16,695 nt of DNA, taken from NCBI GenBank assembly GCA_902789365.1, contig CADANQ010000073.1, positions 1-16,695 of the forward strand. The letters run 5' to 3'. The notes under the pieces are model-generated. The model saw only the letters and a program-made list of their open reading frames with translations. It was not told the origin of the DNA and searched no databases. Each line of letters begins with the position of its first letter. Within the stretch, counting starts at the first letter, position 1. Shown piece after piece: positions 136-12,545 of this stretch. The position numbers and the translations under genes are program-made. The stretch is from an uncultured Eubacteriales bacterium. Its GTDB lineage: Bacteria > Bacillota > Clostridia > Christensenellales > Aristaeellaceae.

Positions 136-1302
136 TCAGCCGTTTTCTTCTCCGGCGCCGCGGAATATGGCGGAAAGAAAGCGGGTAATGTTTTCGTCGA
201 TTTCCACGGTATCGTCGGCCGCCATGCAGTAAAGCACCATCCAGTCAAAGGGCGTCCTGGAATCCAGCGGAGGAAACCCGCAGTCGGAAAGCATGCTGCT
301 GAGCCGGGCGTAGGAATCTTCGAACACGTCGTCCTCGGAGCCGTCGGAATAATAATCCCCGTAATCCGATTCCCCGCCGTCGCAGGCCATGAACAAAAGG
401 ATGAGCGCCTTGCGGGTGACGTCGATCTCCCGGCTTGTCATGCGGGCCAGGGTAAACTCGTCCGGCCAGTTTTGCTGGATATCCCGCTGAATGGCGTCCT
501 TCAGCACGCCGGCGTTTCCCTTCTTTTTGCTGTCGGCGTTCTTGCCTTTGGGAATCAGGTTCCGGTAAAGATAGGTCTCCAGGATCTCGGTAACCGTCAT
601 TTTCCTTTCTTCCGAAAGGCAATCGTCCATATCTGAGTTTTTCAGCAGGTCCATGAACCCCATGAACAGCTGGTATGCCGTGTTATGCAGCGCGCCGAGC
701 CTCGGCGCGGCCTCGCCGAGGAAAGCCTTCAGTTCTTCCTCGTTCTTCAGCCTGGAAACCTCATTGCGCACGTTCCCGGTCATCTCGCCCGCGTCCCCGT
801 TCTTCGCTTTGGCGCACAGGGGCGCCATACGCTCCTGCAGGGCGCAGGCTTCAGCCCAGTTCATTCCCCTGTCCAGGGCGAAAAGATACACAATGTCTTC
901 CGGGTCCCGCCAGTGGAAGCTTTCGCCGCACAGGCGCGGCAGCGCTTCTCCGGCGTCCTTTGCCGTCATCCCAAGGGCAAAGACCAGGTTCACGGCGCTT
1001 TTTTTGCTGATGTACTGGGGCTTATCGTTTATCCATATCCTTACCTTGCGCCCTATGTTATCCCGGTTCGCCCCCGGGGTGCTTTGGGCCAGCAGGTCCG
1101 TCACCCGCTTTTTCAGGGCGTCGCCGTCCTTTGGGTCCGCGCCGCAGAGCTTCGCCAGCGTTTCCGTCACCGGACGAAGATAGGCGTCCTCGTGCAGCCT
1201 GGTTCTGGCTTCCTTCAGCGTCAGGTTTCCCCCGGCCGCAATACGAAACATCAGGTCTGTCATTCCAAGCGGCTTATCGTCCACTGTTTTGTCCTCCGGC
1301 AT
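136..1302 (-). CDS. Hypothetical protein (388 aa), predominantly alpha-helical and acidic, with no family I recognise.
   Basis: Long minus-strand ORF with balanced amino-acid composition (D/E/K/L rich). The overlapping plus-strand ORFs are R/P/G/A-rich antisense artefacts. The ATG at 1300-1302 has only a weak GGA RBS. The gene is flanked by the two repeat-element copies. Confidence 0.55.
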   Translation of the reverse strand: MPEDKTVDDKPLGMTDLMFRIAAGGNLTLKEARTRLHEDAYLRPVTETLAKLCGADPKDGDALKKRVTDLLAQSTPGANRDNIGRKVRIWINDKPQYISKKSAVNLVFALGMTAKDAGEALPRLCGESFHWRDPEDIVYLFALDRGMNWAEACALQERMAPLCAKAKNGDAGEMTGNVRNEVSRLKNEEELKAFLGEAAPRLGALHNTAYQLFMGFMDLLKNSDMDDCLSEERKMTVTEILETYLYRNLIPKGKNADSKKKGNAGVLKDAIQRDIQQNWPDEFTLARMTSREIDVTRKALILLFMACDGGESDYGDYYSDGSEDDVFEDSYARLSSMLSDCGFPPLDSRTPFDWMVLYCMAADDTVEIDENITRFLSAIFRGAGEENG

Positions 1303-2423: not shown

Positions 2424-2458
2424 GGCACGGCGGCTTCCGTATCCGCAAGCCAAGGCCC

Positions 2459-2508
2459 GGGGTCTTCGCGCCGTATGATGCGTGAAAACCCCAGGTCTTT
2501 TCTTTATA
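2459..2508 (+). terminator. Putative intrinsic terminator of the ygjV-like gene.
   Basis: The stem is ggggtcttcgcg / cgtgaaaacccc (10 of 12 bp) with a 10-nt loop, followed by aggtcttttcttt. Confidence 0.45.
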
Positions 2509-2966
2509 ATTCGGTTATGTGCATTTATCGGCACTGCCGTGGCGGCGGCCCGCGGTGCATTCACCCTGGGTTTATCATGGGTCGGCGGCCGCAGAAGGAT
2601 GGGGTAAGCCTTTGTCACGGTGTGGATACCGCAGGCGGACGGAGCGGTCAAAGATTCTTGACGTGGCTGTCTTCCCCGATGGACGTGGTATCCGTCCCCA
2701 TCAATGTACCGCGCGAGGCAGACGTCAGCCTGTGTCCTGCGGAAGACTGGCGGCAGCCCGTATTGCCTTCCCCCTTGGGGGAAGGGAGACCGCGGAGCGG
2801 TGGATGAGGTTCCTCGTCCCGCAGCATGCGGTGAACGTTTCGGATGATGGAAAACCTATGCCCTCTTATCGACAAAAAGGGAAAGACGGCGTGGAACGTG
2901 AGAACCTCATCCGTCTCCTCGCTGACGCTTGGAGCCACTGCCCGGGGCTGCCGCCCGCCCTCCGCT

Positions 2967-2991
2967 GAAAACAGTCCGCCGGACTGTTTTC
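2967..2991. other. Perfect 11-bp inverted repeat with a 3-bp spacer (gaaaacagtcc-gcc-ggactgttttc). It is a candidate bidirectional terminator or operator.
   Basis: Read directly from the sequence. U-runs flank the GC core on both strands. Confidence 0.35.
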
Positions 2992-3395
2992 CGAGCGCTC
3001 CGGGCCCCCCGAGAGGGAAGGCTTACGAAGTCTTCCTTGTCGGTTGAAAGATTCTGTGGCGAGCAAATTATGGAGAAATGCGTAGTAAAACACGACCCAT
3101 GGCAGGCGGCAGCCCGTCATTATAGGTCAATCTTTATTTTTCTGCCAATACACAGAACCGTCCCCTGTTTTTCGCATCGGGAACAACGCCAACCCAGGTT
3201 ACCGCCTCATCACCGATTGCCGCATGCCGAAGCATGGCGGCCCTCGGGCCGCCGCTACATATCGCTTTCCATTCGTTCGCTCGACAATAACTTTTTTTGC
3301 CTGTGCTTCAATGCCAGGGATTCCCACGTCGTTTTATGCGTGCCAATCACGAGCTTTAAATATTTCTTTTTTTAACTTGCCGCCGGGATTTCAGA

Positions 3396-6300
3396 TCAGA
3401 AGATACCTGATTCCAGATTCACCCACAAAGCGGGGCGAACGGCGGTATAGCCATCGTCGACAATGTCGTAGTTGTAGCGCGCACCATAGCTGTTCACATT
3501 GCAGGCGGAAGAAGAGTCCCGCCCCGACGACCGCAACCACCACTTGCAGTTCCCATTGTATGCGTTATATGGTGCTCCCTGGGCAACAGCATATTCCGTC
3601 GGTTTGCATTCCAAGGCACTGTCGCTCTTGAAATAACCCCACGCTTCCGCGTAACTTAGCAGGAAGACCCGGTCTTCCGTATCTTTCCCTCCGCTCGTGT
3701 TCCATCCGCTGTACCCCTGACCTGCACCGTTGTCCACCTTTGTCAGCACGATTGCCGTTTGCTCCCGAGCTGTGAAAGCTTTGTTCAGGAACGTCCCGTT
3801 CAGCCACGTCCGCAGAGTGCAAGTTTCCCACGTCACGCTTGTCCAACCCGTATTATACGGATGACAGTCAAGCGCATATTGGCTGATCAGCAGCGCTTTC
3901 TGTCCGTCCCTCGCAAGCACCAGCCATTCGATCGGCGTGCTATCATTTCCAGACGCCGTCTGCGGATAGGTGCCGAAAGTGACATAATTTCCCAAGCCGA
4001 ATTTCGCGTCACGTTCCGCCGCTGCAGCTACTGCCATAAGATTCTGAGCATTCGCCAGCAGGCTGTCTACGTCCTTGTAACCTTTAATCCCGATAAAGAT
4101 TACAGCGGCTCCGGCATAATCGCCCTTCGACGCCAGATTCTTCGCCTTCAAGTATCGTGTCTCCGTAATCTGCACCGCAGCGTCTGAATAGTTCCCGAGC
4201 GTTGTGAATTCTTCTATCGCCTCCTCATATCTCCCCGCCTGCTGCAGCGCGACCGCGGCCTTGTAATCGCGCTCTTTTATACTGTTCCTGCATACTTCAA
4301 TCTGCGCCGCGGAATCTCCGTATCCGTCCAGCGCTTCAAATGCCGCAATCGCTTCCTCATACTTCCCCGCCTGCTGCAGCGCTATCGCTGCATTGTAATC
4401 ACGCTCTTTGATACTGTTCCTGCATGCTTCAATCTGCACCGCGGAATCTCCGTATCCGTTCAGCGCTTCAAATGCCGCAATCGCTTCCTCGTACTTCCCC
4501 GCCTGCTGTAGCGCTATCGCTGCATTGTAATCACGCTCTTTGATACTGTTTCTGCACGCTTCAATCTGAGCTGCGGAATCACTGTATCCGTTCAGCTCTT
4601 CGAATGCCGTAATCGCTTCCTCGTATCTCCCCGCCTGCTGCAGTGCGACCGCGGCCCTGTAATTGTTGCCGGGAATAATAACCTTTGTAACAAGGATAAT
4701 TGCCGCAATGATCAATACCGGAACCAGAATGGCAAGGATCGTGTCCCGTAACTTTTTGACAGCAGCCGCTTCCTCCGCGCGCCGTTTTTCCTCATTTTCG
4801 GCAGAAAGGCATTCCTCATACCGCTTGTCGGCTTTTTCCCTCAGCTGCTCCACATCGCGGTAGCCGTTAAGTTCCCATTTGGCAAGGGCACTTTTAACGT
4901 TTGACCACTTGCGGCTGTCCTCTCCCGCATTCTTAATCTGCTTCATCACTTCGTTATACTGATAGGACCGAATACTTTCCGCGGATTCAAAACATTCTTT
5001 TGCCTTGGCCTTCGCGTCACGATAAGAGGGGATCGTTTGAAATATCTTTGCCGCATCCTCAAGGATTGCTGGATCGTTCAACCCGCTTCTTTGTTTTTGT
5101 TCGGCGCTGTCATAAACAGCCTTCTGCCTTGCCTGCTCCGCCAAAGCGCGGCACTGCTTCGCGCATTCCGACGCATCTTTATCCCCAACGGAATCAAACA
5201 TTTCCGCGGCCGTTTTGAAACCTTGCTCGGTCACATAACCCGGATCGTTGTTTCGTACTGTCTGTCGGAAAATCTTCTCGTTATGCTCGCTGTTCGCACG
5301 CCGCTTTCCGTCTGCCCGATCACCCTGGGAACGCGCGCAGGTCTCCCTGTATCTTTCAAGCTCCCTGTCAAGTTTTTCCCGGTCCGCTTTCGGGCTGACC
5401 GCCATCTCCATGGCGCAGTCATATGCGTAATCGCGGATCTGCCTGTCCACCCGCTCCTTTGCCTTTGCCGCATACTCTTCATACGTTTTTTTCTGCCCCG
5501 GGTCGGCAAAGCGCAGGGCCTTTTTCCAGTCCGGATCATCATTATACAGGAACGTCGCTTCAGCAAGTTCGCTCTCCCTGCACATACCGAATTTAACGCA
5601 GGCCTTGGCGGCATAGGCAGGAGCGTATTCCGGGTCGATATCCAGCACCCGGTCCAGGTATTCGGAAGCGCTGCGGAAGTCCCCGTCCTCCATGAACAGC
5701 TGCGCCCGCTTCATCAGGCTGGCGACGCCCGGCGCTGCGATGTCGGCGGACGCCGCCGGCGCGGCCTGCCGCGCAGTCACGGAGCTCCCGGCCTTTTTAT
5801 CCGCATCCAGCACCTTTTTGACGCCGCGGATCAGATCCTGCATGAAGCCGATCTTCCCCATGTCCTGGCTCTGCAGGCTGCTCAGCTCGTCCGGCAGGTC
5901 GTAGGGGTCCATGCCCCGGTAACAGGGGATCAGCAGACGCCCGCGGTCGTTCGCCATCAGCTTCAGGTAGCGGCTCCATTCGTTCCTTACCCACACGGCG
6001 CTGAAATATTCCGGTTTGCTCCCGATGACCACCATCACTTTAGCGCTGTTCAGCGCCGCGAAGATATAGGGCTCGTATTCCTGCCCCAGCTTGTCCTCCA
6101 GGGTGATGCGGCTGAAGAACACCTTGTAGCCCTGCTCCGTCAGGCCGTAGTAAACGTCCTGCGCCCACTGGCTGTCGTGGGTGCGCTGCCCGTTTTCGTC
6201 GGTCTCCTTATAACAGATAAAGACGTCGTAGGGCTTTTCGTTTTGCGATATGGCCAGGATGCCCCTTTGGATCTCCGCGATGCGGGCGCCCTCCTCACGG

Positions 6301-6695
6301 TAGATCCGGCGGCTTTCATCGTCCGGCGCGTATTCCACCGCGGCCTTGTAATCCTCGTCCGAAAGGATGGAGGTCAGCTGCAGCCGGTGGCAGGTGGGCA
6401 CCCGTTTCCCGGTGGCAGGATCCTCCACATATTCGATGCCATACCGGCTGATGACCACGCCCCAGTGGGCCTCGGCGTCGGTATCGTCCTGCTCCAGGAT
6501 CTTTTCGTACGCCGCGGCCGCCTTGTCGAACTCCCCCTGCCGCCGGAAATGGTTGGCCCGGTTATAGCGGTTCAGCTTGCCCTCGTCCTCAGCCTTCGGA
6601 ATGGTGGAGACGCTGCCGCAGTATTCGCAGGTGCCGTAAGTGGCGCCGGGAATGAAATCAATGTCTCCGCCGCACATCTTGCATTTGATGATCAT
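3396..6695 (-). CDS. 1099-aa single-pass membrane protein. Reading N to C: zinc ribbon, TIR domain, coiled coil, TM helix, four TPR-like 44-aa repeats, then a C-terminal extracellular domain of the DUF6273 type.
   Basis: A GGAGG RBS lies 5 nt before the ATG at 6695. The N-terminus has CxxC...CxxC at aa 5-26. Residues 154-250 (KPYDVFICYKETD...KVMVVIGS...AVWVRNEWSRYL) match TIR hallmarks, and Glu239 in WVRNE aligns with the catalytic Glu of NADase TIRs. The TM helix ILAILVPVLIIAAIILVTKVII spans aa 654-675. The repeats NAAIALQQAGKYEEAIAAFEALNGYGDSA.QIEACRNSIKERDY occur four times at aa 676-850. The C-terminal 200 aa (FGTYPQ...IEWLVLARDGQKALLISQYALDCHPYNTGWTSVTWETCTLRTWLN...) match the clostridial DUF6273-like family. 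Confidence 0.85.
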   Translation of the reverse strand: MIIKCKMCGGDIDFIPGATYGTCEYCGSVSTIPKAEDEGKLNRYNRANHFRRQGEFDKAAAAYEKILEQDDTDAEAHWGVVISRYGIEYVEDPATGKRVPTCHRLQLTSILSDEDYKAAVEYAPDDESRRIYREEGARIAEIQRGILAISQNEKPYDVFICYKETDENGQRTHDSQWAQDVYYGLTEQGYKVFFSRITLEDKLGQEYEPYIFAALNSAKVMVVIGSKPEYFSAVWVRNEWSRYLKLMANDRGRLLIPCYRGMDPYDLPDELSSLQSQDMGKIGFMQDLIRGVKKVLDADKKAGSSVTARQAAPAASADIAAPGVASLMKRAQLFMEDGDFRSASEYLDRVLDIDPEYAPAYAAKACVKFGMCRESELAEATFLYNDDPDWKKALRFADPGQKKTYEEYAAKAKERVDRQIRDYAYDCAMEMAVSPKADREKLDRELERYRETCARSQGDRADGKRRANSEHNEKIFRQTVRNNDPGYVTEQGFKTAAEMFDSVGDKDASECAKQCRALAEQARQKAVYDSAEQKQRSGLNDPAILEDAAKIFQTIPSYRDAKAKAKECFESAESIRSYQYNEVMKQIKNAGEDSRKWSNVKSALAKWELNGYRDVEQLREKADKRYEECLSAENEEKRRAEEAAAVKKLRDTILAILVPVLIIAAIILVTKVIIPGNNYRAAVALQQAGRYEEAITAFEELNGYSDSAAQIEACRNSIKERDYNAAIALQQAGKYEEAIAAFEALNGYGDSAVQIEACRNSIKERDYNAAIALQQAGKYEEAIAAFEALDGYGDSAAQIEVCRNSIKERDYKAAVALQQAGRYEEAIEEFTTLGNYSDAAVQITETRYLKAKNLASKGDYAGAAVIFIGIKGYKDVDSLLANAQNLMAVAAAAERDAKFGLGNYVTFGTYPQTASGNDSTPIEWLVLARDGQKALLISQYALDCHPYNTGWTSVTWETCTLRTWLNGTFLNKAFTAREQTAIVLTKVDNGAGQGYSGWNTSGGKDTEDRVFLLSYAEAWGYFKSDSALECKPTEYAVAQGAPYNAYNGNCKWWLRSSGRDSSSACNVNSYGARYNYDIVDDGYTAVRPALWVNLESGIF
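4233..4680 (-). repeat. 132-bp in-frame tandem repeat, about 3.4 copies (units start at 4233, 4365, 4497 and 4629), encoding the TPR-like 44-aa repeats.
   Basis: The exact 132-bp period is read from the recurring ccccgcctgctgcagcgc motif. The central copies are more than 90% identical at the DNA level. Confidence 0.8.
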
Positions 6696-6735: not shown

Positions 6736-7377
6736 TCATTTTCCGGACTTCGCAAGCGCCTTCCGCTCTTCCAGCATGCGGAAGGCCTTTTGAATATTGG
6801 CCGCGTCGGCATAGCTCGAAAGGGTCTCCAGCATATCGGCAATCCGGCTGTCCATGGGGGTGGGCGTGGGATCCGCGTACCGGATCTCCTCCGCCAGCTT
6901 TTTGATTTCCGGATGGTTCGTGGCAGCCGCAATGGCCGCGGCCCGGGTACGGATGGCCTTCCAGGGGCCGGTTTTATCCTCCGGAGCGGCTTCAGACCGG
7001 CGAACGGCTTCCCTCGCCGCGTCCTTCACCGTAAGGCAGATTGCCGCGGCGGCGAATACCGCCAGCTCGGCGGCAATTGCCGCCCAAACGGGGCAGAAGG
7101 AGGCAATGCCCATGATGACCGCCCCAACGATCAGCTGAACGATTACAAAGATATACCCCACCCGAAAAATGGGCCAGCCCAGCAGCTTGCTTTCAAGCGT
7201 CCGTTCCCTGCGGAAGGCGCGGAAAAAGGCGGCGGCGCACAGGCCGAACATCGCCGCGGTGCATCCCGCGCCGATCCACCATGCCGCCGTACGGTCAAAG
7301 GGAATCAGAATCATCAGAGCGATAACGAGTACCAGGGCCACGGACCAGACGATCCATGCGTGTTTGGTGAGCTTCAC
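6736..7377 (-). CDS. Small membrane protein (213 aa) with four predicted TM helices and a ~90-aa helical cytoplasmic tail.
   Basis: The GTG start at 7377 is preceded by an AAGGGGGAA RBS. It lies 4 nt after the upstream gene's TAA, indicating translational coupling. There are four hydrophobic stretches. Confidence 0.7.
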   Translation of the reverse strand: MKLTKHAWIVWSVALVLVIALMILIPFDRTAAWWIGAGCTAAMFGLCAAAFFRAFRRERTLESKLLGWPIFRVGYIFVIVQLIVGAVIMGIASFCPVWAAIAAELAVFAAAAICLTVKDAAREAVRRSEAAPEDKTGPWKAIRTRAAAIAAATNHPEIKKLAEEIRYADPTPTPMDSRIADMLETLSSYADAANIQKAFRMLEERKALAKSGK

Positions 7378-7380
7378 TTT

Positions 7381-9177
7381 TTATTCCCCCTTCTTCTTTC
7401 CGCAGTCCGGGCAGAATTTGCTGGTGATTCCCGTGCGTCCGCAGGAACAGTCCCAGGTGTCCGGTTCCGGCTTTTTCATGCCGCACTCGGGACAGAATCT
7501 GCTGGTGATGCCCGCGCGTCCGCAGCCGGGGCAGGTCCAGCCCAATTGGTGCTGAGGCCTTTTGGCCCCGCAGTCGGGGCAGAACCTGCTGGCAATGCCC
7601 TTCGCGCCGCAGGCGCAGTCCCATGTATCCGTGGGAATGGCCCCGCCGATGCCGGCGGCCGCCTGTGTAACCGGGGTGATGGCTTCCTTTGCCATGCCGA
7701 TCACGCTGCCCATGGTGCCGAGGCCCACGCCCAATTGCATCATGTCCCCGGCAAGGCCCGTTGCGCCCCCCGCGCCGCCGTTCTTCATGGCCTCCAGGCC
7801 CACCTGGCGCGCGGTTTCCTGCTGGTAGGTGTAGCCCTTCATGCGCATTTCCTGGGCCTCCGCCTCGGCCTGCATGCGGTATACGTCCGCCTGGGCCTGG
7901 CCGGAAATACGCGCGGCCTCGGCCTCGCCCTGAGCGCCGATCACCTTCATGCGGGCCGCGGTCTGGGCCTCCACTGCCTTGCGCTCGAAGGCTGCTTCGG
8001 CCTCCGCCTTGCGGATTTCCTCCTCCCGGGTGCGCAGGTACATGTCCGCGTGCTGCTGCTTGACACGGCGGAAATTGGGGTCGTCGTCGGGGGTGACGAT
8101 GTTGGCCACATAGAATTCCGGCATCTCCAGGCCGTATTCCTTCAGCTCCGGATTGATGGCTTCCCTCAGGGCCAGGCTGATGCTTTCCACATGCTCGTCC
8201 AATTCCAGCACGTTGAAGCGGTTGGCCTTGATGATCTTCGCCAGGCTGCCCTTCACCTTGGCGGCAACCATGGTGCGGAAATAGCCCGAATCCAGGCTGG
8301 CGGAAGCCGTAACGGTGACGCCGCCGGCCTGAGCGGAAACGGAGGCGCTTTCGCTGCGGAACAGGTCGTCCCGGCTGAGATTGCCGGTGGTGCCCACCAG
8401 CCTGATCAGAAGCTTGCGCGCGTCGGTCACCCGCAGGTTAAAGGATCCGGACGCGCCAAGCTCCACGTGCAGCCCGGTGGCCGGGTCAAACAAGCCCACC
8501 CGGCTGGGGGTGCCCCATTTGATGCCCATCTGGGTGGTCAGGTTGACGAAATATACCTCCGCGTGGAAGGGCTGCCCCTGCACGGGAAGGCGGTACAGCT
8601 GTTCCATTTTGGGCAGGATGCCCGTTTCCAGGGTGTATCTGCCGGGACCGAAGGAATCCAGCGCCTCGCCGTTGCGGAAAAAGACGGCCTCCTGGCTTTC
8701 GTGAACGATCAGCTGGCTGCCCGTCACGAAGTCCGTCAGGGGATGTTTCCACACAAAGGTGCTGTTGTCCCCCTCAAAGCTGATGACCGACGGAATGCCG
8801 GCATCCCGCATTTCGGCCTTTTTGATCTCCTGCTGCACGTCGCATTCAGCGTCGCACATGGGGCAGGCAATGGTATCCGCCGCCTTGTCCGCCTGCAGGC
8901 GGCACCCGCAGGTGGGGCAGCGGAAATGCACCAGGTTGATATAGGTCTCATCCGATATCAGGTTAGCCTTGCATACGGGGCATTTGGCGTTTCTCCCCTC
9001 CGCCTGGTCATACACCACATGGTTGCCGCAGGACGGACAGTCCATGGCCGCCATCCGGTCGGTTTTGACGTTGATGATGTTGCCGCAGGAGCAGCGGATA
9101 TGCTTGCTGGCGAAAAAACCCGTGCTTGCCTGGGCGTAGTTGTGGCAGGCCGGGCACGCGATGATAAACTTGCTCAT
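7381..9177 (-). CDS. SPFH/band-7 domain protein (Band_7_1/YdjI-like, COG4260-type) flanked by three N-terminal and three C-terminal zinc ribbons.
   Basis: A GGAGGGA RBS lies 6 nt before the ATG. Six CxxC pairs occur in the first 115 aa. The core FVWKHPLTDFVTGSQLIVHESQEAVFFRNGEALDSFGPGRYTLETG...PFHAEVYFVN is typical of PF13421-type SPFH domains. There is an Ala/Glu-rich coiled coil and a Gly-rich linker. The C-terminus carries three copies of W(D/T)CxCG...FCP(D/E)CG. Confidence 0.85.
   Translation of the reverse strand: MSKFIIACPACHNYAQASTGFFASKHIRCSCGNIINVKTDRMAAMDCPSCGNHVVYDQAEGRNAKCPVCKANLISDETYINLVHFRCPTCGCRLQADKAADTIACPMCDAECDVQQEIKKAEMRDAGIPSVISFEGDNSTFVWKHPLTDFVTGSQLIVHESQEAVFFRNGEALDSFGPGRYTLETGILPKMEQLYRLPVQGQPFHAEVYFVNLTTQMGIKWGTPSRVGLFDPATGLHVELGASGSFNLRVTDARKLLIRLVGTTGNLSRDDLFRSESASVSAQAGGVTVTASASLDSGYFRTMVAAKVKGSLAKIIKANRFNVLELDEHVESISLALREAINPELKEYGLEMPEFYVANIVTPDDDPNFRRVKQQHADMYLRTREEEIRKAEAEAAFERKAVEAQTAARMKVIGAQGEAEAARISGQAQADVYRMQAEAEAQEMRMKGYTYQQETARQVGLEAMKNGGAGGATGLAGDMMQLGVGLGTMGSVIGMAKEAITPVTQAAAGIGGAIPTDTWDCACGAKGIASRFCPDCGAKRPQHQLGWTCPGCGRAGITSRFCPECGMKKPEPDTWDCSCGRTGITSKFCPDCGKKKGE
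7390..7625 (-). repeat. Approximately 78-bp tandem repeat, three copies (~75% identical), encoding the C-terminal zinc-ribbon triplet.
   Basis: The unit ccgcagtccgggcagaatttgctggtgattcccgtgcgtccgcagg recurs three times with substitutions. Confidence 0.7.
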
Positions 9178-9287: not shown

Positions 9288-9316
9288 ATTTTATCCTATG
9301 AAAGGGTTGTTTTCAA
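9288..9316 (-). promoter_or_regulatory. Putative sigma-A promoter TTGAAA-N17-TAAAAT for the SPFH-TM-TIR operon.
   Basis: The -35 is the RC of 9311-9316 and the -10 is the RC of 9288-9293. This leaves a ~110-nt leader before the ATG at 9177. Confidence 0.45.
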
Positions 9317-9564
9317 TGATTTCCAAACATTTTATGTCGAAACGGCGGGCGGCAGCCCGTTGTATCTTCTCATTTGACGGCCCGGAGCGACCGATAAACA
9401 GGCTGTTGACTGTTTTCGGCACAAGGTGTGCGGCAGCCCGAGGCGCTTTATCCGTACGGGGTCTGAGGCTCCGGAAAATAAGTCCGGCGGGCTGTTGGGA
9501 GGCGGCGGATATCACCTTTTCCGGGCACCCGCATCCCGCGGCATATCCCCGTCCCGGAATCCCG

Positions 9565-9669: not shown

Positions 9670-11586
9670 GTGGACGGGAAAATTTCAGCGGCGGACCTCA
9701 AATATCTGCGTCTCCTGGGGGAGCAGTACCCCACCATTGAAGCGCTGTGTGCGGAAATCACCCGCATCAGCGCCAAACTGAGCCTTCCAAAGGGCACCGA
9801 GCATTTCATGAGCGACATCCACGGTGAATATGAAGCTTTCTGCCACATCATGAACAACTGCTCCGGCGTGGTCCGGGAAAAAGTGAACCTTTGGCTCGGT
9901 GACCTGTCCGTCCGTGAGGCGGATGAACTGTGCACGCTGATCTATTATCCCGCAGCCATCCTCAAGCAGCGTCACCAGAAGGGCGAGATCCTCCCGGAAT
10001 GGTACAAACGTCAGACGGAACACCTGATCCGCCTTTGCAGGCTGCTTTCATCCAAATATTCCCGGGAAAAGGTCCGCCGCTTCATGCCGGACGGCCTTGC
10101 TTTTCTGCTGGACGAGCTGATGCACTACCAGAACGACGAAACCAACGAGGAAAGCGAGCAGGAAGGCAACCGCCGCCGCTATCACGACGCCATCATCGAC
10201 ACCCTGATTTCCACCCGCTCCATCGACAGCCTGATCGAAGCGCTGACGGAGATGATCAAAAAGCTTTCGGTGGACCGGCTTCATGTGGTGGGCGATATTT
10301 ATGACCGCGGTCCCCGTGCCGACAGCATCATGGATATCCTGATGACCCATCATTCCGTGGACATCGAATGGGGCAACCACGACATTCTCTGGATGGGCGC
10401 GGCGTCAGGAAGCGAGTGCTGCATCGCGGGTGTCCTGCGCAACTCCATTTCCTACGGCAACATGGAGATTCTGGAGCGCGGATACGGCATCCCCCTGAGA
10501 GAACTGACCCTTTACGCCGAAAAGCGCTACCCCGACCTGAAGCCGGATCAGGCCATGGTGCAGGCGGTCAACGTGATGATGTTCAAGCTGGAAGGACAGC
10601 TGATCAAAAGGAACCCGGAATTTGAAATGGAGGACCGCCTGCTGCTGGACAAAATCGACCCGGAGCGGCGGACGGCGGAAATCGACGGGGAGGTCTGGCC
10701 GATTAAGCCCGTTCCCCTGCCAACCGTCGATTTCAGCGATCCTTACGCCCTGACGAACGAGGAATCCCAGGTCATGGCCGGGCTGAAGCGGGCCTTCACC
10801 CACAGCCTGCGGCTGCGCGAGCACATCGCTTTCCTTTACCGGCGGGGATGGATGTACCGGGCCTTCAACGGCAACCTGCTGTTCCACGGCTGCGTTCCGC
10901 TGAACGCGGACGGAACGTTCCTCAAAAAAAAGCTGGACGGAAAGGAACTGAGCGGCAAGGCCCTGATGGATTACGCGGACCGCGTCGCCCGCCGTGCCTT
11001 TTACAACGGGGACCGGGCGGCGCTGGATTTCATGTGGTACCTGTGGTGCGGCACGGATTCGCCGGTATGCGGACGCCGGGTCAAGACCTTCGCCAGGGCT
11101 TTTATTCCCGACGAACGCGCGTGGCAGGAGCCCCGCAATCCTTATTACGAATGGTATAATTCCGAAAGCAAATGCCGGGAAATCCTGGCGGAATTCGGCC
11201 TGACAGAGGAGACGTCCTGCATTGTCAACGGCCATACGCCCATCCGGGTGACTCACGGGGAAAGCCCCCTGAAGGCCGGCGGCAAGCTGGTGGTAATCGA
11301 CGGCGGTTTCTGCCGGGCTTACCAGAAAACCACCGGTATTGCCGGGTACACCCTGATATCCAACAGCCACGGGATGCGGCTGATGTCCCACCAGCCCTTC
11401 ACATCCCTGAGGGACGCCCGGGAAACCGGGCGCGATATCCATTCCCAGTCCTTCGAATTCAAGACCTTCGCCCAAAGGAAATACGTCGCCGACACCGACC
11501 AGGGCCGGGCGCTGACGGAGCGCATGCGCGACCTGATGCGGCTGCTTGAGGCCTGCCGGAGCGGCGTAATCAACCTTCAGAGATGA
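9670..11586 (+). CDS. fbp: Fructose-1,6-bisphosphatase class III (Bacillus Fbp type).
   Basis: The GTG start at 9670 follows an AGGAGGA RBS 8 nt upstream. The 638-aa product is collinear with B. subtilis Fbp: PKGTEHFMSDIHGEYEAF, HVVGDIYDRGP, WGNHDILWMGA, GHTPI, VIDGGF, GIAGYTL. Confidence 0.95.
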   Translation: MDGKISAADLKYLRLLGEQYPTIEALCAEITRISAKLSLPKGTEHFMSDIHGEYEAFCHIMNNCSGVVREKVNLWLGDLSVREADELCTLIYYPAAILKQRHQKGEILPEWYKRQTEHLIRLCRLLSSKYSREKVRRFMPDGLAFLLDELMHYQNDETNEESEQEGNRRRYHDAIIDTLISTRSIDSLIEALTEMIKKLSVDRLHVVGDIYDRGPRADSIMDILMTHHSVDIEWGNHDILWMGAASGSECCIAGVLRNSISYGNMEILERGYGIPLRELTLYAEKRYPDLKPDQAMVQAVNVMMFKLEGQLIKRNPEFEMEDRLLLDKIDPERRTAEIDGEVWPIKPVPLPTVDFSDPYALTNEESQVMAGLKRAFTHSLRLREHIAFLYRRGWMYRAFNGNLLFHGCVPLNADGTFLKKKLDGKELSGKALMDYADRVARRAFYNGDRAALDFMWYLWCGTDSPVCGRRVKTFARAFIPDERAWQEPRNPYYEWYNSESKCREILAEFGLTEETSCIVNGHTPIRVTHGESPLKAGGKLVVIDGGFCRAYQKTTGIAGYTLISNSHGMRLMSHQPFTSLRDARETGRDIHSQSFEFKTFAQRKYVADTDQGRALTERMRDLMRLLEACRSGVINLQR

Positions 11587-11616: not shown

Positions 11617-11677
11617 CCTTTCCCCGGCACATTTCCCTTGCCGGTGTCCTGACAATACAGCGCATCAAATCCAAAAC

Positions 11678-11761
11678 TTCACTCTTCACTCTCCACTCTT
11701 CACTCTCCGCTCTCAACTCTCCACTCTTCACTCTCCACTCTCCGCTCTCAACTCTCAACTC
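11678..11761. repeat. Heptanucleotide microsatellite with 12 tandem units of TYCRCTC (ttcactc, tccactc, tccgctc, tcaactc). A 6-unit higher-order repeat is also present.
   Basis: Read directly from the sequence. It overlaps the last four codons and the 3' UTR of the ADP-ribosylglycohydrolase gene. Confidence 0.85.
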
Positions 11762-12545
11762 TTTTCTTAAGCCTTTCCGCAACGGCGCGCATGTCCTCCG
11801 GCAGCCGGGCACGGCATTCGGCCTCCAGTTCTTTCGGCACCCCGTAAAAGGCCTCGGCCATGGAGCCCGCGATGCAGGTCAGGGTGTCGCAGTCGCCGCC
11901 GAGGGACACGGCGGTGCGGATCACATCCTCGAAGTCCGTCCCCTCAAGGAAAGCGGTGATCGCCTCGGGCACGGTCTTTTGGCATGTCTCTACGTGGTGA
12001 TAGGTCGGGCGGATCTGGTCGCAGGTACGGCTCAGGTCATAACCGAAAGCCGCGGTGATATATTCCCGAATCCGCTCCTTTGACGCGCCTGTCCGGGCCA
12101 GGAAGACGGCGGCAGCCGTCGCCTGAGCGCCTTTGATGCCCTCGGGATGGTTGTGGGTCACCTCGGCGGTCAGTTTCGCCGCGTGCAGGGTTTCTTCCAG
12201 GGTATCGTACAGCCATCCGGCGGAGCTGACGCGCATGGCCGAGCCGTTACCGAAGCTCCCGTACGGGGCGGGGTTGCCGCTCATCAGCCATCTGTAAAAC
12301 ATTCCGCCGTACCCGGCGTCGGGATAGCGTCGTCCCCATTTGCGCATGGATTTGATCAGGGCGGCGCGAATTTCGTCGTCGGTCCCGCCCATGCTGTCCA
12401 TCAGCGCTTCCGCCACGGCCACCGACATCACCGAATCGTCGGTAAACACGCTCCGCTTGCCGAAAAGCGGAAAATCCCTGGTTTTATTGCCCATGTCAAA
12501 TTCATAGGGCGCGCCGATCATGTCTCCAAGCAAAGCTCCGTACAT
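11748..12545 (-). CDS. ADP-ribosylglycohydrolase family protein (DraG/ARH-like).
   Basis: An AGGAGG RBS lies 8 nt before the ATG. Family motifs are present: GALLGDMIGAPYEF, GNGSAMRVSSAGW, and LGGDCDTLTCIAGSMAEAFYG (the Mg-binding Asp/Thr cluster). Confidence 0.85.
   Translation of the reverse strand: MYGALLGDMIGAPYEFDMGNKTRDFPLFGKRSVFTDDSVMSVAVAEALMDSMGGTDDEIRAALIKSMRKWGRRYPDAGYGGMFYRWLMSGNPAPYGSFGNGSAMRVSSAGWLYDTLEETLHAAKLTAEVTHNHPEGIKGAQATAAAVFLARTGASKERIREYITAAFGYDLSRTCDQIRPTYHHVETCQKTVPEAITAFLEGTDFEDVIRTAVSLGGDCDTLTCIAGSMAEAFYGVPKELEAECRARLPEDMRAVAERLKKRVES

Follow-up and report, generated by a model that had tools for sequence, protein, structure and literature searches.

A putative type II TIR receptor with a predicted lectin-fold ectodomain, encoded beside an SPFH protein in Clostridia

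The first 16,695 nucleotides (nt) of the 16.9-kb contig CADANQ010000073.1 of an uncultured Eubacteriales bacterium (family Aristaeellaceae; assembly GCA_902789365.1), a stretch that we call the window, carry a gene for a large protein in which a TIR domain is joined through a single predicted transmembrane (TM) helix to a repeat-bearing, lectin-like C-terminal part. The open reading frame (ORF) is uninterrupted, starts with ATG and specifies 1099 amino acids (aa); a protein of identical sequence is encoded on a metagenome contig in ENA. Upstream of it on the minus strand lie the other two genes of a three-gene operon, one for an SPFH-domain protein and one for a protein with four predicted TM segments (the 4-TM protein). 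Coordinates are collected in Table 1; nucleotide positions are those of the window and protein positions are residues of the 1099-aa product. Every functional statement made below is computational.

An earlier note on this DNA, made from the letters alone, had read the protein as a zinc ribbon, a TIR domain, a charged region, a TM helix, repeats and a C-terminal domain, in that order, and all of these are present where it had placed them. The four zinc-ribbon cysteines (C5, C8, C23 and C26) are unchanged across 24 homologues. Pfam TPR-type matches occur at aa 44–79 and 326–369 and, weakly, across aa 679–870. The linker between the TIR domain and the membrane (aa 301–650) matched no family besides this second TPR; 40% of the residues in aa 376–650 are charged and Pro and Gly are scarce, and judged by this composition the region is presumably helical. 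The TM helix is the protein's only strongly hydrophobic segment and is preceded by KKLRD, as the note had it. Beyond it, the four 44-aa TPR-like repeats that the note described occupy aa 676–851 in protein register and are followed by a degenerate fifth; in the DNA they are visible as direct repeats with a 132-nt period at 4198–4663. The C-terminal domain, which the note had believed to be DUF6273, does match that Pfam family (PF19789) at aa 933–1093 (E = 1.9e-27; 96.6 bits against a cut-off of 23.5). Since a PDB sequence search with this domain returned only lysozyme matches, which are spurious and due to its Cys/Asn-rich variable region (see below), its fold is taken from prediction, which assigns to the ectodomain a C-type-lectin fold. 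Thousands of full-length homologues have the same architecture, so this pattern of domains cannot be put down to chance.

The TIR domain, placed by the note at about aa 154–250, matches Pfam TIR_2 (PF13676) over aa 158–280 (E = 1.5e-12; 48.5 bits against a gathering cut-off of 28), and the same model matches 58 of 58 diverse representatives of the protein family. TIR enzymes that cleave nicotinamide adenine dinucleotide (NAD+), the TIR NADases (SARM1, plant TIRs, AbTir), require the Glu of a WxxxE motif and are activated by oligomerisation. In the window protein Glu239 closes such a motif (WVRNE, aa 235–239). The proposal that this residue aligns with the catalytic Glu held up: W235 and E239 align to the W and E of flax L6 ‘SKWCLMEL’ and are both invariant in three family alignments (A2, A5 and A6), and Glu239 is invariant in the 58 diverse representatives. 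The best PDB profile match of the domain is the TIR of TLR15/TLR2, and at the sequence level it weakly matches TcpB and the Thoeris type III ThcB4 model. With its WxxxE motif intact, the domain is a predicted NAD-cleaving, enzyme-type TIR.

Membrane orientation was assessed by counting Lys and Arg in the 15 residues on each side of the TM helix. The window protein has six on the N-terminal side and two on the C-terminal side, and an N-side excess is found in 84 of 84 single-TM relatives (mean 6.9 versus 2.3; Wilcoxon p = 1e-15). No signal peptide precedes the 650-aa N-terminal part, which begins with the Cys4 zinc ribbon, and DUF6273 is also part of an IgA protease that is secreted and of receptor-binding proteins of phages. 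Because of this positive-inside bias, the missing signal peptide and the occurrence of DUF6273 on secreted and phage surface proteins, a type II (N-in/C-out) arrangement is well supported by prediction, with the TIR domain in the cytoplasm and the repeats and C-terminal domain outside, which is the topology that the note had proposed.

Table 1. Features of the operon and of the TIR protein in the window.
Feature	Position (nt)	Strand	Basis
TIR protein gene (zinc ribbon–TPR–TIR–linker–TM–repeat stalk–DUF6273), 1099 aa	3396..6695	(-)	ORF list and translation
Conserved N-terminal module, aa 1–150: zinc ribbon, TPR-like helices, beta-hairpin ‘GIEYVEDP...PTCHR’, helices	6246..6695	(-)	
Cys4 zinc ribbon, aa 5–26	6618–6683	(-)	C5/C8/C23/C26
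TIR domain, aa 156–280, with WxxxE; Glu239 codon at 5979–5981	5856..6230	(-)	Pfam TIR_2
Cytoplasmic linker, aa 301–650 (TPR at 326–369, then charged region)	4746..5795	(-)	Pfam TPR and composition
Single TM helix, aa 652–675	4671..4742	(-)	Hydropathy; predicted N-in/C-out
Predicted extracellular stalk, aa 676–895: four 44-aa TPR-like repeats and one degenerate	4011..4670	(-)	DNA repeats, protein register, weak Pfam TPR
DUF6273 ectodomain, aa 896–1099, predicted C-type-lectin fold	3399..4010	(-)	
Equivalent of the variable region of diversity-generating retroelements, aa 1052–1091, WWLRS...VRPALW	3423..3542	(-)	Position homologous to variable regions with a proven template repeat
4-TM protein gene, 213 aa, soluble tail of ~90 aa; ends 40 nt before the TIR gene	6736..7377	(-)	Hydropathy
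SPFH/Band_7_1 protein gene, 598 aa, first of the operon; ends 3 nt before the 4-TM gene	7381..9177	(-)	Pfam
Promoter-like site TTGAAA-17-TAAAAT, ~110 nt upstream of the SPFH start	9288..9316	(-)	Consensus scan, weak

The SPFH protein (Band_7_1, E = 3.3e-37) has no TM segment by hydropathy and consists of N-terminal zinc ribbons, the Band_7_1 domain, a Gly-rich low-complexity stretch and three C-terminal zinc-ribbon repeats; in the DNA the last of these are seen as three direct repeats of 61 nt (7384–7612, the 3' end of the gene), one for each unit (DTWDCxCG...SRFCPxCG). The 4-TM protein matches no Pfam, NCBIfam or PADLOC family, and NCBIfam gave nothing informative for the operon partners. Operon synteny was scored by tblastn over fetched loci of the TIR protein family (80 genome loci; 85 related loci in all). 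The SPFH gene is present in 59 of the 80 genome loci, and in 29 of the 34 with ample flanks on both sides; a 4-TM homologue lies directly upstream of the TIR gene in 54 of the 80. The order SPFH, 4-TM, TIR on one strand recurs in 46 loci, and the synteny spans families of Clostridia. Five of the 85 related loci contain a SIR2_2 gene within the cassette (the window has none), which hints at an NAD-centred output.

By published description, YdjI is a soluble SPFH protein with C-terminal zinc fingers whose recruitment to the membrane needs YdjG, a zinc-ribbon protein, and YdjH (PMC8581546, PMC9239133). The window SPFH protein resembles this YdjI/SamI component of the Bacillus subtilis PspA-YdjGHI (SamGHI) system in its apparently soluble Band_7_1 form, its C-terminal zinc fingers and its adjacent membrane partner. 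The gene order differs, however, and the zinc-ribbon membrane protein of the window carries a TIR domain and a large ectodomain. No PspA-family gene is among the called genes of the contig.

The operon is bracketed by inverted repeats of ~37–39 nt (2940–3008 and 9408–9496; 72–78% complementary), each holding a terminator-type hairpin with a T-run (AACAGTCCGCCGGACTGTTTT); these could be no more than terminators that act in both directions, or they could mark the ends of an inserted cassette. An ADP-ribosylglycohydrolase gene 2.5 kb from the operon (11748..12545, minus strand) was considered as a further component. It is beside none of the 85 related loci, and since neither it nor the other window neighbours are conserved beside the family, it was rejected.

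The architecture is common. A word-indexed homologue search gave at least 8,000 candidates, and the best 120 of these, which were examined for architecture, all have it in full at 51–70% identity; the sole name that these 120 bear at source is ‘TIR domain-containing protein’. When a profile of aa 1–320 was searched against 1.84 billion 50%-identity representatives (E ≤ 1e-30), it matched 4,450 clusters, always at the N terminus, of proteins from 470 to more than 3,000 aa long. At least 568 loci in GTDB species genomes match two N-terminal peptide patterns. Among the matches listed, these loci belong to Oscillospiraceae, Christensenellales, Lachnospiraceae, Ruminococcus, Acutalibacteraceae and other Clostridia, the genomes are mainly gut and rumen metagenome-assembled genomes (MAGs), and the closest to the window protein (74–75% identity) come from a rumen Clostridiales MAG and an Aristaeellaceae MAG. 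By these counts the family ranks among the larger uncharacterised families of Clostridia. A mobile-element origin was also considered and rejected; the N-terminal module and TIR domain have no match in phage or plasmid collections.

Conservation within the family is highest in the N-terminal module and the TIR domain (mean column conservation 0.94), and the proteins are variable beyond aa ~320. Among the 58 representatives the ectodomain is DUF6273 in 16 and an RCC1-like propeller in nine; other C-terminal parts are BspA-type or other leucine-rich repeats (LRRs), ankyrin, WG repeats, FMN_bind and SH3_3. In the majority of members a single TM helix leads into the 44-aa repeats known from the window protein, also ahead of ectodomains other than DUF6273, and 28 of the 80 genome loci carry two or three tandem TIR paralogues whose ectodomains differ. 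The joining of a constant cytoplasmic module to interchangeable C-terminal binding domains strengthens the case for receptor logic.

Some loci go further, with three to five tandem paralogues of the zinc ribbon–TPR–TIR type each, which differ in their C-terminal parts (L009, L021, L026, L031, L039, L064, L065, L070 and L083). In the first of these, from a Christensenellales MAG, the array extends over positions 920–20000 of the locus. One array paralogue is 2324 aa long and has dozens of 44-aa repeats and two degenerate DUF6273-like domains. Such arrays look like a receptor repertoire. At the other extreme are members of 546 aa (L046 and L063, from Lacrimispora and [Clostridium] aerotolerans, L044 and L055), which consist of the N-terminal module, TIR and TPR with neither TM helix nor ectodomain. 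These short members still adjoin SPFH and TM protein genes, so the cytoplasmic module can function without an ectodomain of its own.

The last ~40 residues of DUF6273 constitute a variable region (VR), and in six related loci (L002, L022, L025, L034, L042 and L054) the Avd gene, template repeat (TR) and reverse transcriptase (RT) gene of a diversity-generating retroelement (DGR) lie directly downstream. Pooled over these six loci, 122 of 138 TR/VR mismatches fall at TR adenines. In L002, bAvd and an RVT_1 reverse transcriptase come after a homologue of the window gene and its 1765-aa paralogue, and a 119-nt TR between bAvd and the RT gene matches the 3' ends of both TIR genes; the other five loci, from Christensenella, Acutalibacteraceae, Eubacterium, Eubacteriales and Lachnospiraceae MAGs, are arranged in the same way. 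Across 135 pairs of near-identical alleles, mismatches per site amount to 5.8% in the VR, 0.46% in the remainder of the ectodomain and 1.3% in the cytoplasmic part. Lys, Glu, Gln, Met and Trp together make up 5.2% of family VRs versus 18.5% of the remaining domain.

The two L002 paralogues (1069 and 1765 aa) have 3' ends that are 99–100% identical (10550–11210 and 16077–16737 of that locus) and identical VRs. One TR serves both and the DGR adjoins only the downstream copy; the identity of the ends suggests a recent duplication or gene conversion, or else retrohoming into both copies at once. In the five other DGR loci, short GC-rich hairpins with 3–5-nt loops (GCGCCGAAGGCGC, GCGTGCGAAGCACGC) stand between the target-gene stop and bAvd and are reminiscent of DGR target-recognition hairpins.

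The VR-equivalent of the window gene retains the VR scaffold and the 3' GTTCGCCCCGCTTTGTGG. Of 29 codons in it 24 are NNY, a type that makes up 48% of codons elsewhere in the gene (p = 1.2e-4); every residue in it can be reached from AAY codons, with no Lys, Glu, Gln, Met or Trp, and it is the least conserved segment of the protein (0.53). From the NNY excess and the restriction to AAY-reachable residues, the segment looks like a product of adenine mutagenesis that is now targeted from elsewhere in the genome or frozen. DGR targeting holds for the relatives; the window gene, for which no cognate TR was found, keeps the compositional footprint only. Aligned to the six heterologous TRs, the segment has mismatches that are not adenine-specific, and an exact search of metagenomes for a cognate TR with the adenine-free VR flanks gave 10 matches, all of them VRs of other members and none adenine-rich or matching the window. 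DGR cassettes of the related loci occupy the position equivalent to 2424–3395 of the window; these ~970 nt between the TIR stop and a YgjV-like gene hold no convincing ORF, Rfam match or remnant of Avd, TR or RT.

The reading that we favour, and to which we would give an even chance, is that of an outside-in receptor: clustering by a ligand would switch on the cytoplasmic TIR domain as an NADase, with the SPFH protein as its scaffold. What we infer here is the flow of information, which might run as follows. The protein would be a type II single-pass receptor that keeps its conserved N-terminal part (~300 aa) and its 350-aa charged helical linker in the cytoplasm, while the stalk of 44-aa repeats would present the DUF6273 lectin-fold domain outside the cell. 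It would be co-transcribed with a soluble YdjI-like SPFH scaffold and the 4-TM protein. The SPFH protein, as an oligomer recruited to the membrane by the 4-TM protein and the receptor's cytoplasmic module, would keep the receptors arrayed in a controlled, inactive state. Clustering of the receptors would follow when the lectin-like tip bound a multivalent ligand outside the cell, for which a phage particle, the surface of a foreign cell and a glycan are candidates, and would bring about the self-association that TIR enzymes require. The TIR domain would then cleave NAD+, with the result either of NAD+ depletion (growth arrest or abortive infection) or of a signal derived from ADP-ribose. In the relatives the binding surface would be the VR of a dedicated DGR, which could provide a repertoire of specificities.

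We put forward a wider proposal only tentatively and regard it as rather doubtful in its full extent. In it, gut and rumen Clostridia would possess a very large, undescribed class of surface immune-type receptors with swappable ectodomains, a subset of which is hypermutated by a retroelement to give an anticipatory repertoire; these would detect threats or partners outside the cell, for instance a foreign cell or a phage particle whose genome has yet to enter, and fire a TIR NADase on an SPFH scaffold, as an outside-in counterpart of Toll-like and antigen receptors.

Several observations weigh against the favoured outside-in reading. The operon's neighbours in the window are housekeeping genes (FBPase, OGG, an HD-domain protein) and form no defence island, and PADLOC gave no match for the three operon proteins, a 388-aa ORF near one end of the window or the ADP-ribosylglycohydrolase. 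A DGR lies within 10 kb in only 6 of ~51 DUF6273 loci. In the 16.7-kb window, a repeat search and tblastn with Avd and RT revealed neither a TR nor Avd or RT, and the GC-rich hairpins of DGR-linked VRs are absent downstream of the window gene. Some members of the family have three or four TM helices and some have none, so ectodomain sensing is not the sole input. Finally, an AlphaFold2 model of aa 1–320, built on a shallow alignment of highly similar sequences, has a confidence score (pLDDT) of 30–75 in its TIR part; since the TIR domain was modelled so poorly, the model was dropped as evidence on pocket geometry.

The alternative that survives best, unlikely as we judge it, is that the operon encodes an effector of envelope stress or membrane damage. 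The SPFH, 4-TM and zinc-ribbon TM proteins would form a membrane-integrity sensor like YdjGHI (SamGHI), in which perturbation of the membrane by phage injection, holins or antimicrobials, and not the binding of a ligand, turns the TIR domain on, and the ectodomain would only position or anchor the protein in the wall. This would agree with the conserved, YdjI-like SPFH partner and with the members that lack TM helix and ectodomain (L046 and L063) and keep the N-terminal module and TIR beside SPFH, but it leaves unexplained both the interchangeable C-terminal ligand-binding modules and the DGR diversification of one of them, and there is no pspA gene in the window.

We hold it to be quite unlikely that the same outside-in mechanism serves a role other than conflict, sensing host mucus, dietary glycans or kin and making a nucleotide that acts as second messenger. 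A housekeeping genomic context with no PADLOC match suits such a sensor, as does a family that is chromosomal and absent from phage and plasmid collections, and the multiple paralogues per genome with differing ectodomains are like sensor repertoires. The cassette, however, comes without a conserved reader protein for a nucleotide signal, SIR2_2 being present in only five loci, and what DGRs typically diversify are interfaces of attachment or of an arms race (PMC8144416). A surface adhesin, that is, a membrane-anchored binder whose cytoplasmic zinc ribbon–TIR part is an anchor or oligomerisation platform tied to SPFH microdomains and has no enzymatic output, would be in keeping with cellular DGR targets being mostly membrane-anchored binders of extracellular substrates (Roux et al. 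2021, PMC8144416) and with DUF6273 being a receptor-binding domain in phages, but it is very unlikely, since it fits poorly with a cytoplasmic module that is the most conserved part of the protein, has a catalytic Glu invariant in all members examined, as would not be expected of a passive anchor, and at 650 aa far exceeds the needs of anchoring.

Among known systems the concept closest to the outside-in receptor favoured here is that of the DGR-diversified C-type-lectin ‘antigen sensors’ of multicellular bacteria, whose effectors are TIR, CHAT or kinase domains (PMC7159879, Kaur et al. 2020; PMC7517822, Vallota-Eastman et al. 2020; PMC10907252, Doré et al. 2024). They, like the window family, have a DGR-variable C-type-lectin domain and a conflict-type effector, which can be a TIR, in one polypeptide, and like the proposed receptor they couple a diversifiable sensor to an effector. 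They are, however, STAND NTPase or vWA-MoxR ternary systems that are mostly cytoplasmic and belong to multicellular cyanobacteria and proteobacteria (including Thiohalocapsa), whereas the window family has a single TM helix with the lectin predicted outside, a zinc ribbon–TPR N-terminal module and an SPFH/4-TM pair, and occurs in gut- and rumen-type Clostridia. The window TIR protein and its operon partners contain no NTPase, MoxR or vWA domain, and assignment to the STAND/VMAP systems was rejected. A second comparison is with phage receptor-binding proteins that carry DUF6273, the tentaclins and Mtd-like DGR targets of gut phages (PMC10743442, PMC11792537, bioRxiv 10.1101/2024.10.15.618418). 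They share with the window family the Pfam domain, the C-type-lectin fold and a VR at the C-terminal end of DUF6273, and their TR/VR anatomy is that of the six related loci. Those are tail or decoration proteins, whereas the window family consists of chromosomal membrane proteins with a cytoplasmic TIR, and the window protein is only 34–37% identical to GenBank phage sequences. Thoeris ThsB, AbTir and TcpB/BtpA have a TIR_2-type domain with the conserved catalytic Glu in common with the window protein but, unlike it, are soluble and have no TM helix or ectodomain. Membership of Thoeris was rejected: the NCBIfam ThcB4 model gives 16.6 bits against a cut-off of 220, the window has no ThsA-type partner and PADLOC gave no match.

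The earlier note had likened the protein to eukaryotic Toll-like receptors and had thought such logic unusual in a bacterium. The receptor logic is supported by the modularity of the family, and the likeness itself is one of analogy. Both are single-pass proteins with a repeat-bearing, ligand-binding-type ectodomain and a cytoplasmic TIR domain, but Toll-like receptors are type I proteins with a C-terminal TIR and an LRR ectodomain, whereas the window protein is type II by prediction, with an N-terminal TIR, TPR-like repeats and a C-type lectin. Its TIR domain also keeps the enzyme-type WxxxE Glu, which to our knowledge is lacking from the scaffolding TIRs of Toll-like receptors. One TM helix together with a TIR domain is the only defining feature of those receptors that the window protein has, and the resemblance would be best described as a functional analogy that arose by convergent domain assembly, with no sign of common architectural ancestry. 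As for rarity, 4,450 clusters and at least 568 GTDB loci show the remark to be wrong as a statement of frequency. The note was silent on this abundance, and also on the operon partners, the C-type-lectin fold and the DGR-type variable region.

No description of the family was found in the part of the literature that we covered on SPFH with TIR, on DGRs with TIR in Clostridia and on transmembrane bacterial TIR receptors, and the large DGR surveys examined make no mention of TIR or DUF6273 in this context. All of the parts are known; their assembly, partners and abundance appear to be undescribed. Known bacterial TIR systems detect infection within the cell, and DGR-diversified TIR/STAND sensors have so far been mostly cytoplasmic and confined to multicellular bacteria. 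If the outside-in reading is correct, the family would represent a new type of bacterial transmembrane signalling, in which a constant TIR domain is combined with swappable and sometimes DGR-diversified ectodomains and the output is an NAD-cleaving enzyme instead of a kinase or cyclase, and abundant gut commensals may monitor their own surface for variable ligands. It also offers leads: a YdjI-type SPFH scaffold would gain its first candidate function beyond the Psp response, DUF6273, hitherto discussed chiefly in phage receptor-binding proteins, would gain a role in cells, and the three-gene cassette is compact and open to direct testing.

Some minor features of the window remain to be recorded. 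Rfam and tRNA scans of it gave no match. Two pairs of ~100-nt direct repeats with 90–91% identity (7–109/1474–1576 and 1327–1425/16526–16624) each hold a near-perfect hairpin (GTATCTGTTCAGTCC...GGACAGAACAGATAC) followed by a G/C-rich run; with no Rfam match, they are probably an intergenic repeat family and may be the reason for the contig ending there. They flank the 388-aa ORF (136..1302, minus strand), which has no NCBIfam or PADLOC match and whose P16-Arc Pfam match is marginal (E = 2e-4) and probably spurious. Between the FBPase and ADP-ribosylglycohydrolase genes (11658–11769) is a 14-nt tandem repeat of the CACTCTTCACTCTC type in six copies.

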